This document shows, in pieces, positions 1 to 15,097 of a stretch of DNA of 15,097 nt (position 1 is the first letter of the stretch; every line of letters begins with the position of its first letter). This stretch comes from a virus (Duplodnaviria; Heunggongvirae; Uroviricota; Caudoviricetes). Made by a program: the position numbers and the translations under genes. The DNA lies in IMG/VR virus record IMGVR_UViG_2671180979_000021; one strand, 5' to 3'. The notes under the pieces were generated by a model. It ran no database searches. It saw nothing but the letters and a program-made list of their open reading frames with translations, and was not told where the DNA came from.

Positions 1-222
1 TCACTGCGGAAGGCGTCTGTAACAACCGAACTGATAGTCTGCCAGACCCGCCATAACCAGCTGGGTCAGTATTAACTGGCAGCGTTCGCGTGAAAGGTAA
101 GTATTCTGCGCAATCTCCCCGACTGTCGCCGGTTCGGTGACGCTCAATTCATTAAACACCACTCTGGCGGTTTCGGTCATATCTTGCTGTTTTAGCATGT
201 CTTTTTCCCTTCTGGTTAACAT
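1..222 (-). CDS. Small protein, 73 aa, possibly a winged-helix DNA-binding regulator (FaeA/PapI-like pattern)
   Basis: Complete ORF in the track: ATG at 220-222, stop at 1-3, purine-rich AAGGGA upstream. The central segment TVGEIAQNTYLSRERCQLILTQLVMAGL resembles recognition-helix regions of small wHTH regulators. Family assignment is from memory and not searched. Confidence 0.4.
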   Translation of the reverse strand: MLTRREKDMLKQQDMTETARVVFNELSVTEPATVGEIAQNTYLSRERCQLILTQLVMAGLADYQFGCYRRLPQ

Positions 223-318
223 GACATACCAATAACTCTTGTCTAAAAAGCCAGCAAGATAAAAAGTCAGTATTCACGACCACCAGCGTGTTTACTGTAC
301 TGCACCAAGTTTACAGGT

Positions 319-345
319 ACAAAAAACCCGCTCAGTGGCGGGTTT
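319..345 (-). terminator. Intrinsic terminator hairpin (CCCGC / tcagtg loop / GCGGG) flanked by A6 and T3, strongest for leftward transcripts
   Basis: Sequence aaaaaaCCCGCtcagtgGCGGGttt at 321-345. Read on the minus strand the stem is followed by a six-U tract. It lies 3' of the 475-1119 gene. Confidence 0.6.
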
Positions 346-474
346 AAGTTGTGTGGCGAAGTAACCACTCTTAACACACTAATAGTATTTTTGTTATAAC
401 ACAAGTAGCTCATTCAGTATTTTTAGAATCTTGACTTTCTTAAGCACGGCGAACTCTGAATACCAAACATAAAA

Positions 475-1092
475 TCAATTATCTTCCAGGCCGGATGCTA
501 TCAACGAAAGCCTCTCAAAAAACGCTGTAGCAGCCTTGTCCAAAGTTGAATAAGTACTGTATTCTCCGTGTTCGGGACCAACCACTACCCATGGTCGTCT
601 TTTTGGGATTCGGGACTTCTCAGAAATCACTGTTCCAGATATACCAATATCAATTGTTACACCTGTTATTATTTTCTCTTCATCTCTTTCCCTGAACTCA
701 ATTGCCATAAATGCCGTTTTTTTTCGTTTCCCGTTTTTAAAAAAATCAAATAAAGCAAAGCGATGCTCATTAAAATCAACACCCCATCGTCCTTCAGGAT
801 AAAGGGCATGAAAGTTGTCATTTACGCTCTGCATCGTCTCATAAGCTTTAACTTCTAAATCTCCATAGTGCATAGATACCGCGCAGGAGTCACTGGGTAA
901 CTGTATTTTCCCAAGATTGAAAACCTTTACTGCTCCAGAACTATGGCATCTTGCCCGCAATTTATCCCCATTTATACTAATCGGAGAAATATTCCTTAAT
1001 GTTCCGGGCTGGCTCCCTCCTAAGTAAACGACTGTTAAAGATTGCTTATTTTCAATTGCATCAACTAATACATGCTCTACATTTTTATCCAT
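475..1092 (-). CDS. Hypothetical protein, about 205 aa, AT-rich gene immediately downstream of Q; function unknown
   Basis: Track ORF 475..1119 (214 aa). The in-frame ATG at 1090-1092 (MDKNVEHV...) is preceded by GGGAG with 6-nt spacing, whereas the ATG at 1119 is preceded only by CCTCC, so the shorter start is preferred. Visibly lower GC than the flanking genes. No family recognised by eye. Confidence 0.55.
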   Translation of the reverse strand: MDKNVEHVLVDAIENKQSLTVVYLGGSQPGTLRNISPISINGDKLRARCHSSGAVKVFNLGKIQLPSDSCAVSMHYGDLEVKAYETMQSVNDNFHALYPEGRWGVDFNEHRFALFDFFKNGKRKKTAFMAIEFRERDEEKIITGVTIDIGISGTVISEKSRIPKRRPWVVVGPEHGEYSTYSTLDKAATAFFERLSLIASGLEDN

Positions 1093-1167
1093 AATAATCT
1101 CCCAATGAACAGGTATCATCAGGAGGTTATAATAAAATATGATTATTTACTTTGATTGAATTTATTA

Positions 1168-1539
1168 CTATATGTAACAATCAATTTCTAAAGATACCCC
1201 CAACATTGCCAGACAACCGTCAATAAACCCTTCAGCTTTCTGCAGTCTGATAACAACCTGATTAAGTGATATCCCCAGTTTTACCCCCAACACCCGTAAT
1301 GTAACCCCATACACATAATACATTTCCAGTAATTCGTATTGATACGGTTCCTTTTTCTTAAGAACTGTCATCGCAGAGCTAATGATCAGGCCATCGTCAT
1401 CGCTACATTGCGGGCGGGATTTTACTTTCGAAGGAATTAATCCCTTAAAACCTGCAGCAACAGATGACCATTCCACATCCTCGTGATTATTTGCCACCCA
1501 TGCCCCCCAACGTTCAAGAACCATTTGAATATCACGCAT
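1168..1539 (-). CDS. Late-gene antitermination protein Q (QuuD/YbcQ-like small Q family)
   Basis: The N-terminus MRDIQMVLERWGAW...NNHEDV.WSS.AAGFKGLI matches my recollection of E. coli QuuD-type Q proteins. GGAGA lies 6 nt upstream of the ATG at 1537-1539; the track start at 1554 would place the start inside that RBS. Last gene of the leftward early operon, as expected for Q. Confidence 0.75.
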   Translation of the reverse strand: MRDIQMVLERWGAWVANNHEDVEWSSVAAGFKGLIPSKVKSRPQCSDDDGLIISSAMTVLKKKEPYQYELLEMYYVYGVTLRVLGVKLGISLNQVVIRLQKAEGFIDGCLAMLGVSLEIDCYI

Positions 1540-1556
1540 CAACTTTCTCCACAAAA

Positions 1557-2552
1557 TCAGGCCAGCACGCCTATTGCCAGCGCACGATCGATAAAACGAA
1601 ATATCAGCTCCAGCTGGGAGCCATACTTCTCTTCAAATGCCACGGTATCCGCATGCAGCTCGTCGTGATGCTTTCTGCACAAAGGCAGCACGAAGAGGTC
1701 ATGCGCTTTTGTACCCATTCCCCCCTGACCGTGGCCTATCAGGTGGTGGGGATCATCAGCAGGCTTTCCACAACATGCACACGGCTGCGTCTTAACCCAG
1801 CGCGTGTACTTTTCGTTAACCCAGCGGCGACGTTTTGGGCGTAACATAAAAGACTCCGGCGACTCCGGATCCACTTTCAGCGCCAGCACCTTTTTCGCTT
1901 TATTCTGGATGATGCTGGTGGCCGGAACCGAAGGCACAAGGTCACTCTCCCGGGTGACAGACGGCACAACAGGCTTCGGTAATCTCAGTGCCTTACGGGC
2001 TGCACTTTCCGGTAAGGCATCCGCCAGATCATTACGAACCAGCCACCAGCACAGTTCCGGCATTGTCACAACGTGACTGTCATCAAAACCGAGATCCCGA
2101 CGCACAACAGACAACACCCAGCGGGCACAGTTATCCGTTGCCATTGATTCCAGCCGTTCCGTGAACTGATCGCGCAGCTGGTTATCGCAGTGCCAGCACA
2201 GACGGATTGCGCCCGGCGCGTGTCGCATTGTTGTCATGTTCTCGCTGTGCCAGTCGGAATGAGGCCACTGGCAGCCTTTTTCACGAAGTAACCAGCTTTC
2301 AAGACATTCCACGCCACCAGCACGACGGATCACTGCCTCATTGCGGAACACGGCCCGTACGGCAGGATCATCCGCCAGCGGTTGTGATGCCGCCGGAACG
2401 GCACCACTGGCGAAAGATGAATAACGTTCCGGCTCAGGCTCCAGCAGGACACGCCCCTGCATAAACAGGGGCATCAGCTCTGAACCTGGTCTGAAAAATA
2501 CGATCCCCATACGCGGGGCAATTTCAGGGGTCAGTAGTGCTCTCACGGTCAC
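1557..2552 (-). CDS. DUF968 (YdfU-like) protein with C-terminal HNH-like Cys/His motif
   Basis: 331-aa ORF. C-terminal CACCGKPADDPHHLIGHGQGG...LCRKHHDELH is a zinc-finger/HNH-like signature. Sits directly upstream of Q, as ydfU does next to quuQ in the Qin prophage. Confidence 0.65.
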   Translation of the reverse strand: MTVRALLTPEIAPRMGIVFFRPGSELMPLFMQGRVLLEPEPERYSSFASGAVPAASQPLADDPAVRAVFRNEAVIRRAGGVECLESWLLREKGCQWPHSDWHSENMTTMRHAPGAIRLCWHCDNQLRDQFTERLESMATDNCARWVLSVVRRDLGFDDSHVVTMPELCWWLVRNDLADALPESAARKALRLPKPVVPSVTRESDLVPSVPATSIIQNKAKKVLALKVDPESPESFMLRPKRRRWVNEKYTRWVKTQPCACCGKPADDPHHLIGHGQGGMGTKAHDLFVLPLCRKHHDELHADTVAFEEKYGSQLELIFRFIDRALAIGVLA

Positions 2553-2553
2553 C

Positions 2554-3363
2554 TCAATGAACGGTATCGAGCAGCTTTAACAGCTCAGGGAATCGGGATT
2601 CGAAGAAATGCGGCTGCGTCTCGCGCGGATTTGCGGGACTGGTGATGTTCTTGCCGAACATGCAGCCTTTCGCTGTCAGCGACCAGAATTTTTTGATGTT
2701 GTTAATCGAGGTACGGCTGTATCGTTCGCGTTGTTCAACGATCCCCAGCTTCGCCATCTGGTGATATGCCTGATTAGCCGTAAGGCGGATACCATACTGT
2801 TTCAGCAGTGCACTCAGCGACAGCGTAGGGCGACTTGAGCCATCAGGCGCGTCAGCAGGAGCATCAATGGCATAGCGCGGTGCCAGATTCGGTAAGCCAA
2901 CAGCCTCCTGGAGTTTCTGACAGGCACCAAGCACTGAAGAGTTAGACAGGTTTAACTCCCTGCGCATAAAGTCCAGCAGAATCACGCCAGCCTGCATCTT
3001 GTCAGCAGCCTGCCCGGATAATTTTTCCGGTGCGCTGGTTACCATATCGAAAGTACGGATCACCTTCAGATGGAATGACGGGCTGATCCACATTGCATAG
3101 GCATACACCAGTTCTTTGCAGACATACGTCCCCGGGTTATTTCCGCCATTAATGACGCTAACTGGTTGATTTTGTTCCAGAGGCGGAATTCCACCCTCGG
3201 TGAAAAGTTGTTCAATCAATTCACAGGTTTGCTTATTGGAGAGCCAGTATTTCGGGCGGTTTTTTTGTTCTCCCCCGGCTGCCCTGTGCAGATCGTTCAG
3301 GCTGTAACGCCCATAAGCATCACGACGAACTTCAATACCATCAATAACCATCAGATTATTCAT
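2554..3363 (-). CDS. KilA-N domain protein (antirepressor-like)
   Basis: N-terminus MNNLMVIDGIEVRRDAYGRYSLNDLHRAAGG...KYWLSNKQTCELIEQL...ELVYAYAMWISPSFHLKVIRTFD is a typical KilA-N domain. Strong RBS AAGAGGAGA 8 nt upstream of the ATG. Confidence 0.7.
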   Translation of the reverse strand: MNNLMVIDGIEVRRDAYGRYSLNDLHRAAGGEQKNRPKYWLSNKQTCELIEQLFTEGGIPPLEQNQPVSVINGGNNPGTYVCKELVYAYAMWISPSFHLKVIRTFDMVTSAPEKLSGQAADKMQAGVILLDFMRRELNLSNSSVLGACQKLQEAVGLPNLAPRYAIDAPADAPDGSSRPTLSLSALLKQYGIRLTANQAYHQMAKLGIVEQRERYSRTSINNIKKFWSLTAKGCMFGKNITSPANPRETQPHFFESRFPELLKLLDTVH

Positions 3364-3772: not shown

Positions 3773-4095
3773 ACTTTCAGGCCTCTCTCATGTAACCAGT
3801 GAGTTGCACGCAGCCTTGCGTTTTCCTCACCGGCAAGCAGTGAGCGGATAATCCCGACCGCCTCGCTGTCGTCGTCCTTCACCGCTGTATGAAGCGTGAT
3901 CCCCCGGGCCACACCACGCTTTATCGTGATGACGCCTTTTTTCTCCAGTGCGCGAAGATGCTCCACCGCTGCATTCACCGAACGGTATCCCAGCATGGTT
4001 GCCACCTCCTGATTGGTTGGCGGGAAGCCACGCTCTTTCTGATAAGAAATCAGCATATCCAGCACCTGCTGCTGGCATTGAGTTAACGTCGTCAT
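3769..4095 (-). CDS. LexA N-terminal DNA-binding-domain-like protein (no peptidase domain)
   Basis: 108 aa. LTQCQQQVLDMLISYQKERGFPPTNQEVATMLGYRSVNAAVEHLRALEKKGVI follows the LexA winged-helix pattern. Confidence 0.6.
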   Translation of the reverse strand: MTTLTQCQQQVLDMLISYQKERGFPPTNQEVATMLGYRSVNAAVEHLRALEKKGVITIKRGVARGITLHTAVKDDDSEAVGIIRSLLAGEENARLRATHWLHERGLKV

Positions 4096-4745
4096 GCCGC
4101 CATCTCCCTGACCAGCTTTTCCGCCTGCAGGCGAACCTGCGCCAGAAACGCCTCACCACATGCCTCAAGTTCATCGCGCCCGATGTAGCTGATTGCCGGT
4201 CCCTTCCAGGTCTTGTCGAAAACAGCAATAGCACCAGCGAAGAAAGCGCCTGTCGGCACCTGCTTCTCATCCTTCGGGATAAACCAGGCAGGCAGTTCAA
4301 AACCAATACGCCCGCGAATAAAAGCAATATGATCTGCATCTTCCGGCCACCACACTTCGCTGGTGGCAGCTTTGATCAGGAAAACATAGCGCCCGCCCTT
4401 ATCACGCATGGCACTGGCATGCTTCATGATGTAACGCATGCCGGTGATGTATTGCCCCTCATGCTGACTGGCGCGGCTGTATGGGGGATTTCCAAAGGCA
4501 GCACCTTTAAGCTCCGCAAGACGTTCTGACCAGTCATGCGCCAGCGCGTTGTCTTCCGCCGTGTAATACGCGGCGCATTTGGCGTTATCACCGTCAGTAA
4601 ACAGATCCAGAACAAACGGGCCAAACAGGGTGTTAATTCCCCAGAAAATGTTGTCCGGTGTGCGCCACTGATCGCCCACTTCCTTCAGTTCATGGGCTGG
4701 TTTGTTTCGCAGTTCCACCAGCGCCCGGCAATATTTATTACTCAT
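4092..4745 (-). CDS. Phage Dam-type DNA N6-adenine methyltransferase
   Basis: Contains the NPPY catalytic motif (FGNPPYSRAS) within a Dam-like fold pattern. Preferred start is the ATG at 4743-4745, which overlaps the upstream TAA (TAATG); the track ORF extends to 4778. Confidence 0.8.
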   Translation of the reverse strand: MSNKYCRALVELRNKPAHELKEVGDQWRTPDNIFWGINTLFGPFVLDLFTDGDNAKCAAYYTAEDNALAHDWSERLAELKGAAFGNPPYSRASQHEGQYITGMRYIMKHASAMRDKGGRYVFLIKAATSEVWWPEDADHIAFIRGRIGFELPAWFIPKDEKQVPTGAFFAGAIAVFDKTWKGPAISYIGRDELEACGEAFLAQVRLQAEKLVREMAA

Positions 4746-5239
4746 TAAGCCCCCACGTAATTCCCTGACAGATACCACTCTTCACCTGATGCAGCGCGCT
4801 TGCTGCTTTTCCGTAAGCACCGCTCACGACGTGCCAGAAAATTGTTTCGTTCTGGCTGGGAGTGGCTTTCACGGAATGCCGCCATCCACACGGTTGCAGC
4901 ACGACGAAATAAGCCCCTGGACTCCAGTTCTTCCGCCTGGCGGGCCAGGCACAAAATCACCCGCGGGTCGTTAGTGCCGACATAGAAATTGCGCACAGGT
5001 CTGGTTTCACGAACTGGTTGCCGTTCCGCCTCCGGCGATATCTTTGTCTGGCGCGGGAAATGTCTGCGTGCATCCCCTTCACAACGGTGAGCCACACGCC
5101 CACTCTGACGTAACTTGCTTGCTGACTGCAGAACGCGCTGCCGTGAGTAACCTGTAAAAGCATCCGCAATGTCTCCGGAAGTACACCCCGGATGGGCTTC
5201 AATGAATTTCTGAACGTCATTCAAAAGACTCATGCTCAC
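4745..5239 (-). CDS. Hypothetical regulator with PerC-like C-terminal region (YfdN-like, 164 aa)
   Basis: C-terminal ARQAEELESRGLFRRAATVWMAAF...RRERCL resembles the PerC/ANR-type small activator pattern. Start overlaps the replication gene stop (ATGA). Same position as yfdN between the methyltransferase and replication genes of CPS-53. Confidence 0.55.
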   Translation of the reverse strand: MSMSLLNDVQKFIEAHPGCTSGDIADAFTGYSRQRVLQSASKLRQSGRVAHRCEGDARRHFPRQTKISPEAERQPVRETRPVRNFYVGTNDPRVILCLARQAEELESRGLFRRAATVWMAAFRESHSQPERNNFLARRERCLRKSSKRAASGEEWYLSGNYVGA

Positions 5240-9184: not shown

Positions 9185-10009
9185 ATGTCTCAGAACTTAG
9201 ACGCAACCGCAATTAATCAAATCCATGCTCTTATTTCTGCTCAGGGTGTTAATGAAATTATCAGTAATATTGGTGCCGATGCTGTGGCATTGCCTGAGAA
9301 TTTCCGCATTCATGATCTGGAAAAATTTAATTTAAATCGCTTCCGTTTCCGTGGCGCGCTTTCCACTGCCAGCATCGATGATTTTACCCGTTATTCTAAA
9401 GATCTTGCAGATGAAGGCACCCGCTGCTTTATCGATGCTGATAATATGCGTGCCGTCAGTGTGCTTAACCTGGGTACTATTGATGAACCAGGTCACGCAG
9501 ATAACACCGCCACTCTCAAACTGAAAAAGACAGCACCGTTCTCTGCTCTGTTGTCTGTTAACGGCGAGCGTAACTCCCAGAAGTCACTGGCAGAATGGAT
9601 TGAAGACTGGGCCGACTACCTTGTGGGCTTTGATGCTAATGGTGACGCCATTCAGGCAACCAAAGCGGCTGCGGCGATCCGTAAAATCACAATTGAAGCG
9701 AACCAGACCGCTGATTTTGAAGATAATGACTTCAGCGGCAAACGCTCCCTGATGGAGTCTGTCGAAGCGAAGACCAAAGACATTATGCCAGTGGCATTTG
9801 AATTTAAATGCGTTCCGTTTGAAGGTCTGAAAGAACGTCCATTTAAATTACGCCTCAGCATTATCACTGGCGATCGTCCTGTACTGGTTCTGCGCATTAT
9901 TCAGCTGGAAGCAGTGCAGGAAGAAATGGCTAACGAATTTCGTGATCTGCTTGTTGAGAAATTCAAAGACAGCAAAGTAGAAACCTTTATTGGTACTTTC
10001 ACCGCCTGA
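9185..10009 (+). CDS. yfdQ: YfdQ-family protein (DUF2303), 274 aa
   Basis: Length and sequence character match the E. coli CPS-53 YfdQ family as I recall it. RBS GAGGA upstream of the ATG. A hairpin (aaatgcccc/ggggcattt, 10022-10043) follows the stop codon. Confidence 0.75.
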
Positions 10010-10137
10010 TTTCATTACTGCAAATGCCCCTGCGGGGGCATTTATGGAAACGTAATTAACTCAATAATCGCCGGATGGTGCGGGATTCCTTTTACCCGAA
10101 TTCAGCGCGGTGCAGCGCATATAAAGTGGAGAACGAA

Positions 10138-10674
10138 ATGTCATTTATTAAAACTTTTTCCGGGAAGCATTTTTATTATGACAAGATAAATAAAGACGAC
10201 ATCGTGATTAACGATATCGCGGTTTCCCTTTCAAATATCTGTCGCTTTGCAGGACATCTTTCACACTTCTACAGTGTCGCCCAGCATGCGGTGCTTTGCC
10301 GCCAGCTGGTGCCGCAGGAATTTGCTTTTGAAGCGTTAATGCATGATGCAACAGAAGCGTATTGCCAGGACATCCCCGCACCACTGAAACGACTTCTTCC
10401 TGACTATAAACGGATGGAGGAAAAAATAGACGCCGTAATCCGTGAGAAATACGGGTTACCTCCTGTTATGAGCACGCCAGTGAAATATGCCGATCTCATC
10501 ATGCTGGCAACCGAACGCCGCGATCTCGGACTTGATGATGGCTCTTTCTGGCCTGTATTGGAAGGTATCCCGGCAACAGAGATGTTCAAAGTGATTCCAC
10601 TGGCACCGGGCCATGCCTACGGGATGTTTATGGAACGCTTCAACGAGTTATCGGAATTACGCAAATGTGCATAA
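10138..10674 (+). CDS. yfdR: HD-domain 5'-deoxynucleotidase YfdR-like, 178 aa
   Basis: HD motif (ALMHDATEAY) with the earlier His (AQHAV). ATG at 10138 preceded by GGAGA. Length equals YfdR (178 aa). The track ORF begins earlier at 10075. Confidence 0.8.
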   Translation: MSFIKTFSGKHFYYDKINKDDIVINDIAVSLSNICRFAGHLSHFYSVAQHAVLCRQLVPQEFAFEALMHDATEAYCQDIPAPLKRLLPDYKRMEEKIDAVIREKYGLPPVMSTPVKYADLIMLATERRDLGLDDGSFWPVLEGIPATEMFKVIPLAPGHAYGMFMERFNELSELRKCA

Positions 10675-11543
10675 CTCATGTAGTTAGTTTTTCTGGCGGG
10701 AGAACATCTGCATATCTTGTTCACCTGATGGAAGAACAAAGAAAGGCTGGCAATAACGTCTGCTACATCTTTATGGATACCGGTTGCGAACATCCGCTGA
10801 CATACCGCTTTATTCGGGAGGTTGTGAAGTTCTGGGGCATACCGCTAACTGTGTTGCAGGTCGATATAAATCCAGAGCTTGGGCAGCCAAATGGTTATAC
10901 GGAATGGGAACCAAAGGATATTCAGACGCGAATGCCGGTGCTAAAACCGTTTATGGACATGGTTAAAAAGTACGGTACGCCATACATCGGCGGCGCATTC
11001 TGTACTGACAGGCTAAAACTCACCCCTTTCACGAAATATTGAGATGACCATTTTGGGCGAGGGAATTACATCACATGGCTGGGTATTCGTGCAGACGAAC
11101 CCCGCAGGCTGAAACCGAAACCGGGCGTCCGGTATCTCGCCGAACTGTCAGATTTTGATAAGTCGGATGTTATCCGGTGGTGGCGTAAACAGCCGTTCGA
11201 TTTACTTATCCCTGAGCACCTCGGGAACTGTGTTTTCTGCATCAAAAAGTCAACGCAAAAGCTGGGGCTTGCATGTAAGGACGAACCTGGCCTGATGCGG
11301 GTTTTTAATGAACTGGTTACAGGCCAACACGTCAGGGACGGTCATCGCAGAACAGGTAAAGACGTTATGTACCGTGGTCATCTGAGTCTTGAAGGGATTG
11401 CCAGAATGTATGCCGACAGCGACTACTGGAATTTGTATCAGGCGATGGTGCAGGCCGGGCGATTCGATACCGGCTCGTGTTCAGAGTCATGTGAAATCTG
11501 GGGTGATCAACTGGAGTTGAAATTCGAAGAGGTAGTTACATGA
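10665..11543 (+). pseudogene. PAPS reductase-like (PP-loop) gene interrupted by a single in-frame TGA at 11040-11042
   Basis: N-terminal PP-loop motif SFSGGRTS. The same frame stays open from 10665 to 11543 apart from the one TGA (FTKY*DDHFGRGNYITWLGIRADEP...). This corresponds to the split yfdS/yfdT pair position in CPS-53. Confidence 0.55.
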
Positions 11544-12196
11544 CAAACAAAATTGACTATCAGGCACTGCGTGAGGCGGCAGTGAAAGCCGGTGAAGATA
11601 AGTGGCAGGCTAAAAAAATAAACGGTGATTTTTTCGTTATTCGTCACGGTAGTTATACAAGACAGCATGGCTACACATCGTATCAACCCATTGCGGAGAT
11701 TGATTGTAAGCCTGTCCGGGATTTTGTTGCCAGGGCTAATCCGGCTACCGTGCTGGCGCTGCTAGATGAACGGGAAAGAAACCAGCAATACATAAAACGC
11801 CGCGACCAGGAGAACGAGGAAATTGCGCTAACGGTAGGGAAACTGCGTGTTGAGCTGGAAGCCGCAGAGAAGCGCAACGCAAAATTACAAAGAGAGAATG
11901 CATACATCCGCAACCGGTACAAAGAACTGGACCTATTAATCGGGAAAAACATTCTGGTCATGCAGGCTGCGATTATCGAATGGCAATCGACTGGCGACGC
12001 TAAAAGCGGACTGGCATGGATTTATAACACACTGTTTGGCCCAGGCGAATTACCGGACGAATCTGAGAAAGATGCTCAGGCCTACTTTAATCGCAAATAT
12101 GCACCGATTGACGAAAAGCTTATGGAGCTTCACAAGTGGTTTTGGGAACAAAGTGAAGCCGAGCGCGCCGCTGGCATTCGCATCAAAGGAGAGTGA
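11540..12196 (+). CDS. Ead/Ea22-like protein
   Basis: Contains the characteristic ANPATVLALLDERE motif and a coiled-coil region. ATGA overlap with the upstream gene; RBS GAGGTAG. Confidence 0.7.
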   Translation: MTNKIDYQALREAAVKAGEDKWQAKKINGDFFVIRHGSYTRQHGYTSYQPIAEIDCKPVRDFVARANPATVLALLDERERNQQYIKRRDQENEEIALTVGKLRVELEAAEKRNAKLQRENAYIRNRYKELDLLIGKNILVMQAAIIEWQSTGDAKSGLAWIYNTLFGPGELPDESEKDAQAYFNRKYAPIDEKLMELHKWFWEQSEAERAAGIRIKGE

Positions 12197-12197
12197 G

Positions 12198-12389
12198 ATG
12201 AACGGACAAATATCAATTGTTCGACCGGGAGCATGTGACGATCGCGAAATACGAATGATTATTCGTCTGGCGAGGGGGAAAACAATAACTGCTCTCATTA
12301 CTCCAGAAAATCTCGCATTAGCATTAACAGGAAAGTCAGACCTGCCAGTAGAGCTAAAGCTGCGAAATGTTGAGATTAAGGTGAAATAG
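12198..12389 (+). CDS. Small hypothetical protein, 63 aa
   Basis: ATG at 12198 with AAGGAG 6 nt upstream, tightly packed between neighbouring genes. The track ORF 12036..12389 overlaps the upstream gene. Confidence 0.5.
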   Translation: MNGQISIVRPGACDDREIRMIIRLARGKTITALITPENLALALTGKSDLPVELKLRNVEIKVK

Positions 12390-14108: not shown

Positions 14109-14528
14109 TTACTCATCATCAATAGATGATACGCAATATTTATTTTTAAATTTAAGGTTCTTTGGCGTAACTTCATCAGAGATATCAAAACCGTCCAGAA
14201 TTCTATTGAATGTAGCTTCTGGCATATCATCATGAACAGAAATCTCACCCGATCGCTGCTTTCTAACCATGTTATCCACTCGCCAAATTATAGCTTCAGC
14301 GTAAACAACATAACTTGGATGCTTGATAAAGCGATGATCACCAGAATTCAAGACGCAAGACGGATCGTGGGGGACACCATCCTTGATACTAGAAATATTA
14401 ACAACTAAAACACAATAACAATCGTTAACGGGGTAATAAACAGGATCATTACAAATCACATGAAGATGATTGCATGGTCCAGTTGGGGCAAGCACAGTTC
14501 CTTTCCTGTATGGCTGATAATCCGTCAT
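14109..14528 (-). CDS. Hypothetical protein, 139 aa; candidate toxin/effector partner of the upstream Panacea-domain gene
   Basis: ORF whose start overlaps the stop of the upstream gene by 4 nt. Cys/His-rich N-terminal half (GPCNHLHVICNDPVYYPVNDCYC). AT-rich. No family recognised. Confidence 0.55.
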   Translation of the reverse strand: MTDYQPYRKGTVLAPTGPCNHLHVICNDPVYYPVNDCYCVLVVNISSIKDGVPHDPSCVLNSGDHRFIKHPSYVVYAEAIIWRVDNMVRKQRSGEISVHDDMPEATFNRILDGFDISDEVTPKNLKFKNKYCVSSIDDE

Positions 14529-15097
14529 GATAATTGCAAAGAAAATTCCTTAAGTTTCTGAGATTCTTCCATTTTGCCAATTATGCGATTAGCCTCATCC
14601 TCGCTTTTACCCTCACTGATCAGCATTTCTTTCAGGTCTATAGGCTTACGAGAATTGCCAGGATCGTGCCACTCTGGACAAACGCTTTCTAAATGCGTCA
14701 TATTTGCGAGATCAAATCGGTTCATATGCCCATACCGAGAATAGATTTCATCTAAAATCCGGATATCTGCACGACTCAATTCATCAAAGACCTCGTCTGC
14801 ATCCATTTCCCTCGGATCTGAACGCAACGATACATTATGCCCGTTCGTCTCTATCAAGTTGTACCAGTAGTCACCAATGCCTTCAGCCTTACCGCGAATC
14901 AAGTTCAGCGTATTCGACATGACTGGTCCAAATTTCATAGAGTAAAGGCTATCTTCGCCGATCATCCTGCCATGCTTCAAAATCGACTGGCGGTTAGACA
15001 GATAGAGCAGCTTCATCAATTTCAGATATGCCATGCGCCCACCTCTCTTAAGAAGTAGGTATGCAGCCATTTGAGCTACTTTTTCTTCGCAAAACAT
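14525..15097 (-). CDS. Panacea-domain (DUF4065, SocA/PanA-like) putative antitoxin; 5' end may be cut by the window edge
   Basis: N-terminal AAYLLLKRGGRMAYLKLMKLLYLSNRQSILKHGRMIGEDSLYSMKFGPVMSNTLNLI fits the Panacea pattern (KLxKLLYL ... GPV) as I recall it. The ORF reaches the last base of the window, so the true start cannot be confirmed. Confidence 0.6.
   Translation of the reverse strand: MFCEEKVAQMAAYLLLKRGGRMAYLKLMKLLYLSNRQSILKHGRMIGEDSLYSMKFGPVMSNTLNLIRGKAEGIGDYWYNLIETNGHNVSLRSDPREMDADEVFDELSRADIRILDEIYSRYGHMNRFDLANMTHLESVCPEWHDPGNSRKPIDLKEMLISEGKSEDEANRIIGKMEESQKLKEFSLQLS

Follow-up and report, generated by a model that had tools for sequence, protein, structure and literature searches.

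A premature TGA at an invariant cysteine codon marks a probable, very recent pseudogene of the lambda NinC family

The described systems closest to the locus analysed here are NinC of phage lambda and the CysH-type PAPS/APS reductases. Lambda ninC is listed as non-essential in an essentiality screen (PMC10695390), and a search of the literature on NinC function yielded nothing beyond that listing; no link of NinC to anti-defence was found there, and on DNA modification there was nothing specific to NinC. An uninterrupted frame of about 280–295 amino acids would be expected of a lambda NinC family member; in the present copy the frame is broken by a TGA at codon 126. CysH PAPS/APS reductases (PDB 6vpu, 1sur and 2goy) have the adenine-nucleotide alpha-hydrolase fold and the PP-loop region in common with the NinC-like protein, but identity is only about 20%, and the C-terminal half of the NinC-like protein differs and carries its own set of invariant cysteines. 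Moreover, the NCBIfam CysH equivalog (PRK02090) reaches 20.3 bits, far below its cut-off of 154. Given this score, the low identity and the differing C-terminal half, the NinC-like protein is not a bona fide sulfate-assimilation enzyme. The sequence match to solved PAPS/APS reductases is limited to the N-terminal ~95 residues (profile match to residues 3–96), and no solved close relative that accounts for the cysteine set was found by sequence, the C-terminal half being left uncovered.

The window, that is, the whole stretch of 15,097 nucleotides analysed, contains an 879-nt frame that opens with an ATG at 10665, meets an in-frame TGA at 11040–11042 and continues in the same frame to a stop at 11541–11543. 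The original prediction described a PAPS-reductase-like frame with a single in-frame TGA, and translation of 10665–11546 agrees, giving 125 codons, the TGA and 166 codons. It also held that one base change would restore a protein of about 292 amino acids; a sense codon in place of the TGA indeed gives 292. The features of the locus are as follows.

10138–10674, + strand: upstream neighbour yfdR (5'-deoxynucleotidase), from the annotation of the syntenic loci of E. coli MSB1_9I (L001) and strain 97-3250 (L002) and from phrog_318
10665–11543, + strand: ninC-like frame (PAPS_reduct / PP-loop), now probably a pseudogene; 292 amino acids if codon 126 is sense
10665–11039, + strand: the 125 codons still translated, with the PP-loop SGGxxS and DTG/EH motifs (Pfam PF01507, 37 bits)
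11040–11042, + strand: premature TGA, from TGC (Cys126) by C-to-A at 11042, by comparison with L001 and L002
11043–11543, + strand: C-terminal 166 codons and the original stop, no longer translated, from family alignments
11540–12196, + strand: downstream neighbour, an ead/Ea22-like gene, from the sequence, the ORF list, the L001 annotation and a Pfam Ead_Ea22 match on a related locus (L006)

The end of yfdR and the start of the ninC-like frame overlap by 10 nt, and the ead-like gene starts on an ATG that shares bases with the original ninC-like stop (ATGA at 11540–11543). The gene order yfdP–yfdQ–yfdR–ninC-like–ead is found in the window and in its closest relatives. Beyond the ead/Ea22-like gene lie a DUF551 gene, a 3'-5' exonuclease gene and a PrtN-like gene; these genes are all + strand and lie downstream of an S24-peptidase repressor. 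In related genomes this region forms the early operon of a lambdoid prophage, or of a prophage remnant, beside dusA. The MSB1_9I element (positions 3927–16791 of that locus) is bounded by an integrase gene beside dusA and by a partial dusA duplicate, and its truncated phage genes include DinI-like, tail tube and Rha genes. With several phage genes truncated, it is a decaying remnant rather than a complete prophage, a state read from MSB1_9I, as the window stops short of those element ends. At the far end of the window, a Panacea-domain gene (SocA-like antitoxin; 14525–15097, − strand) reaches the last position and, lying upstream, overlaps a 139-aa ORF with no Pfam match (14109–14528, − strand); the two may form a toxin–antitoxin pair near the prophage end.

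The N-terminal part of the frame matches Pfam PAPS_reduct (PF01507) over residues 5–72 with 37.4 bits against a gathering cut-off of 22.5, which places it in the PP-loop ATP pyrophosphatase superfamily. The PP-loop SFSGGRTS occupies residues 8–15, within which S8, S10, G11, G12, R13 and S15 are family-invariant. The C-terminal part, 11043–11543, holds the invariant residues W138, G140, R142, D144 and E145 and encodes the invariant cysteines C189, C192, C272 and C276, while C126 coincides with the stop itself. The repaired protein matches PHROGs 33262 and 424 ("phosphoadenosine phosphosulfate reductase") with E-values of 1e-90 to 1e-92, each alignment running as one continuous stretch (residues 4–284 and 5–291). 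Its sequence places the gene in the lambda NinC family, as a pseudogene. Among 5,426 complete E. coli genomes, 423 have full-length relatives of the 879-nt stretch, some chromosomal and some on phage-like plasmids; relatives also occur in 119 phage records, the Stx-phage copies being annotated NinC at 89–90% DNA identity. A 91% identical intact copy is carried by plasmids of about 95 kb, apparently phage-plasmids (NZ_LR890200.1, locus L137, and some 70 others of ~92–99 kb), and downstream of these plasmid copies come the small ORFs that also follow the gene in Stx phages.

Six cysteines, C113, C126, C189, C192, C272 and C276, are invariant across the family (alignments A1 and A2), with CxxC and CxxxC motifs among them. 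In sequence terms this set suggests metal or Fe-S cluster binding of a kind absent from CysH. Furthermore, in four homologue clusters (P0081, P0088, P0092 and P0100) the NinC-like PAPS_reduct domain is joined at its C-terminal side to a Dam-type DNA N6-adenine methyltransferase domain (PF05869), forming proteins of ~465–511 amino acids; P0081 represents 11 member sequences. These fusions hint that NinC-family enzymes act in DNA modification. A separate Dam-type methyltransferase is encoded in the window at 4092–4778 on the − strand.

Comparison with intact copies resolves both the base change and its direction. The closest public copy, from E. coli MSB1_9I (WP_201524472.1), differs from the window gene at 4 of 879 nt (99.5% identity), and its flanking prophage is 99.6% identical over 6.5 kb with the same gene order. 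This copy is annotated as intact at 292 amino acids and has C at 11042, giving TGC for Cys126; past the stop, the window frame is amino-acid-identical to the MSB1_9I protein, an agreement far exceeding chance, and the remaining amino-acid difference is T120P. The 95% identical copy of strain 97-3250 also reads TGC. With TGC in both the 99.5% and the 95% identical copies, parsimony makes the A at 11042 the derived state, produced by a C-to-A transversion. Tryptophan had been offered as an example of the residue at the stop position, a suggestion that the homologue alignment replaces with an invariant cysteine encoded by TGC or TGT. Specifically, Cys126 is present in 122 of 122 family members, down to ~51% identity and including lambda-type NinC, and the junction is flanked by the invariant or nearly invariant residues Y125, G131, W138, G140, R142 and D144. 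At least 120 motif matches were obtained in IMG/VR, and of the 120 listed, 77 carry TGC and 43 carry TGT at the site.

The stop allele is confined to a narrow set of nearly identical copies. A degenerate motif across the site, Y-stop-[DN]-[DE]-x-F-G-x6-W-x-G-[IM]-R-x-D, matches the window once and shuffled sequences 0 times. With TGA at the stop position it has 0 matches in 185,579 GTDB species genomes, 2.9 million IMG/VR contigs and JGI metagenome contigs; with TGY, it has the at least 120 matches in IMG/VR alone. The 59-nt TGA junctions of three haplotypes (162, 184 and 58 records) gave no exact match among the 5,426 complete E. coli genomes, in a search that counts exact 59-mers and in which a TGA copy with one other mismatch is indistinguishable from a TGC copy. 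Gene calls on 16 public contigs give precisely this truncated product of 125 aa. Nine of these loci, from nine different sample accessions, were read, and all carry TGA; they come from seven Logan SRA runs, one ENA metagenome and one NCBI assembly (GCA_001284465.1), in which a 6.4-kb stretch matches the window exactly. The identity of the nine to the window is 99.7–100%, and the gene itself, 11043–11543 included, does not vary among them, the few SNPs lying in or upstream of yfdR (4 SNPs in yfdR of one locus, L012). This near-identity, together with the uniformity within the gene, points to one mutational event in one lineage that is very young. Conservation of the TGA across independent prophages, which had been raised as a possible sign of function, is not what is found, as the allele is seen only in these 99.7–100% identical copies. 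Independently decayed alleles of the gene also occur in other prophages: P0060 and P0064 are frameshifted after residues 158–167, and P0021, found on 20 contigs, is a deletion fusion that joins the first 231 residues to a DUF551 C-terminus.

We regard the locus as an ordinary nonsense pseudogene, very recent and limited to one lineage, that belongs to a phage gene family already known, and assign this reading a probability of about 0.93. As in nonsense pseudogenes generally, close intact orthologues hold a sense codon at the site, and the stop is derived and restricted to a single lineage. Among the alternatives originally set out for the TGA, the pseudogene is retained, while the split gene and stop-codon readthrough are not. 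In the proposed course of events, a C-to-A transversion at 11042 would have turned the TGC of invariant Cys126 into TGA in one prophage lineage, translation would end after 125 residues, and the mutation would have been inherited very recently within that closely related lineage, its loss of function presumably tolerated because ninC-type genes are dispensable. The non-essentiality of lambda ninC makes such a loss in a resident prophage expected. The 125-aa fragment keeps the PP-loop, but roughly half of the nucleotide-binding fold is missing from it, as are five of the six invariant cysteines; with these parts gone, it is probably enzymatically dead. Since the original stop overlapped the ATG of the ead-like gene, the premature stop probably also removes translational coupling between the two, and the ~500 nt of untranslated mRNA could exert some polarity on the ead-like gene.

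A functional split gene, in which separate N- and C-terminal polypeptides assemble, would have in its favour that the two parts are adjacent and in frame and that public gene callers predict a small 3' ORF of 58 amino acids (window 11367–11543), but the junction itself speaks against it. No in-frame ATG, GTG or TTG occurs for 84 codons after the TGA, so the downstream part lacks a start of its own over that stretch; the first such codon stands at 11295. Before that point there are only weak non-canonical start-like codons (ATC, CTG, ATT), and TGC-bearing copies have these bases at the junction too. Nor was a promoter-like (sigma-70-like) site found in 10000–12300, and an internal restart is ruled out on these grounds. 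With no start before 11295, residues 127–210, which include W138, G140, R142, D144, C189 and C192 and most of the invariant positions, could not be made separately. Conservation runs straight across the junction. In 111 IMG/VR contigs with the site away from contig ends (120 matches listed, 76 distinct sequence contexts) the frame is continuous, remaining open for at least 113 codons before the site and at least 115 after it (for 109 of these contigs, at least 156 after). Of the best 120 homologue clusters, none has its start or end at the site. The AlphaFold2 model, made for a homologue with 95% identity from an alignment of database proteins only (pLDDT 86.5, pTM 0.85), places residue 126 inside a helix spanning 112–130 that is followed by a strand at 135–139. 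Foldseek aligns the model to CysH/APS reductases with probability 1.0 over ~180 columns, a length exceeding that of the 125-aa fragment, and in the model the break interrupts a helix within one domain. Taken with the model, these observations make a working split gene very improbable. Programmed recoding is no better placed; here a working enzyme of full length would be made by inserting selenocysteine at the UGA or by reading through it as Trp or Cys. The stop does fall exactly on an invariant Cys codon, the place where Sec and Cys are exchanged in true selenoproteins, and UGA is the leakiest stop in E. coli. Nevertheless, the TGA is not conserved and is absent from every other collection scanned, and a Trp in place of the invariant Cys would probably be inactive. 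The earlier remark that no SECIS-like hairpin follows the TGA holds up in both an Rfam scan and RNA folding. The scan of 10900–11300 at E-values up to 10 returned only chance-level hits to Hatchet and TMV_UPD-PK3 and nothing significant, a whole-window scan at the gathering score found nothing, and the 71 nt from the UGA (11040–11110) fold no better than shuffled sequences (z = +0.72; 156 of 200 shuffles reach equal or greater stability). In addition, the flanking 59 nt are otherwise identical to the TGC-bearing junction of the plasmid copy L137, which argues that no SECIS has evolved here and lends nothing to recoding. Selenocysteine is ruled out by the scan and the fold, and diverged orthologues show no UGA/Cys alternation. 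Recoding of any kind is accordingly rated as highly unlikely.

A low level of full-length protein might still arise without dedicated signals. In E. coli UGA is a leaky stop, and background leakage would probably insert mostly Trp at a position where only Cys is seen. An allele in which near-cognate decoding at UGA-G leaves a little full-length protein and a tuned-down enzyme, or in which the loss is adaptive for the lineage, is a reading that we hold to be very unlikely. Another proposal, in which truncation was selected because it removed a costly activity or because the PP-loop fragment took on a new role, could draw on the presence of the allele in several sampling projects; yet the copies are nearly identical and represent one event, hitch-hiking within a clone explains the spread, and convergence on this truncation is not seen in other lineages, which decay at different places. 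Selected loss or neofunctionalisation is thereby left with very little probability. The persistence of the allele into several sampling projects and the slight variation in yfdR fit neutrality without establishing it. A sequencing or assembly error, with TGC as the true codon, would be compatible with the single-base difference from the nearest intact copy, but the truncated product is called on 16 contigs and nine of nine loci from different sample accessions read TGA, so that an error is scarcely credible and the allele is real. A very recent nonsense pseudogene thus remains the reading that we adopt for 10665–11543.

For annotation, 10665–11543 should be marked as a pseudogene of the NinC family and neither as two genes nor as a recoding candidate. 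The kind of event is already known, and its wider importance is small. Incidentally, the six invariant cysteines and the Dam-type fusions offer clues to the function of lambda NinC. The comparison also corrects the view, taken in the original prediction, that the locus appears in the K-12 CPS-53 remnant as two short adjacent genes, yfdS and yfdT, and with it the idea that these are halves of a ninC-like gene.

In K-12 MG1655, yfdR is followed by yfdS (120 aa) and yfdT (101 aa). These genes occupy the same position directly downstream of yfdR as the ninC-like gene, but their sequences are unrelated to it: YfdS and YfdT have no similarity to the NinC-like protein (best BLASTP E-values 2.1 and 4.9). 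By BLASTN, the CPS-53 DNA matches the window at 95% identity as far as ~10672, where yfdR ends, with no similarity beyond. BLASTP and BLASTN together rule out yfdS and yfdT as split halves of a ninC-like gene. A mosaic junction lies at the overlap of yfdR with the next gene (window ~10665–10674; K-12 MG1655 locus L004, 7512–8179), and the relation between yfdS/yfdT and the ninC-like gene is, as read from these alignments, a mosaic replacement by different modules. Clear similarity is seen instead to lambda-type NinC, represented by a lambdoid prophage of K-12 strain J53, in which a 290-aa protein encoded between ninB and ninD shares 78% amino-acid identity with the repaired protein. The Pfam domain and all six invariant cysteines are common to both proteins, and their lengths are close (290–292 aa). 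They differ in their setting, lambda ninC belonging to the nin region, whereas the window gene stands between yfdR and the ead/Ea22-like gene in the early operon, across the repressor from the nin side, and they differ in that the premature stop is present in the window gene only and not in lambda NinC.
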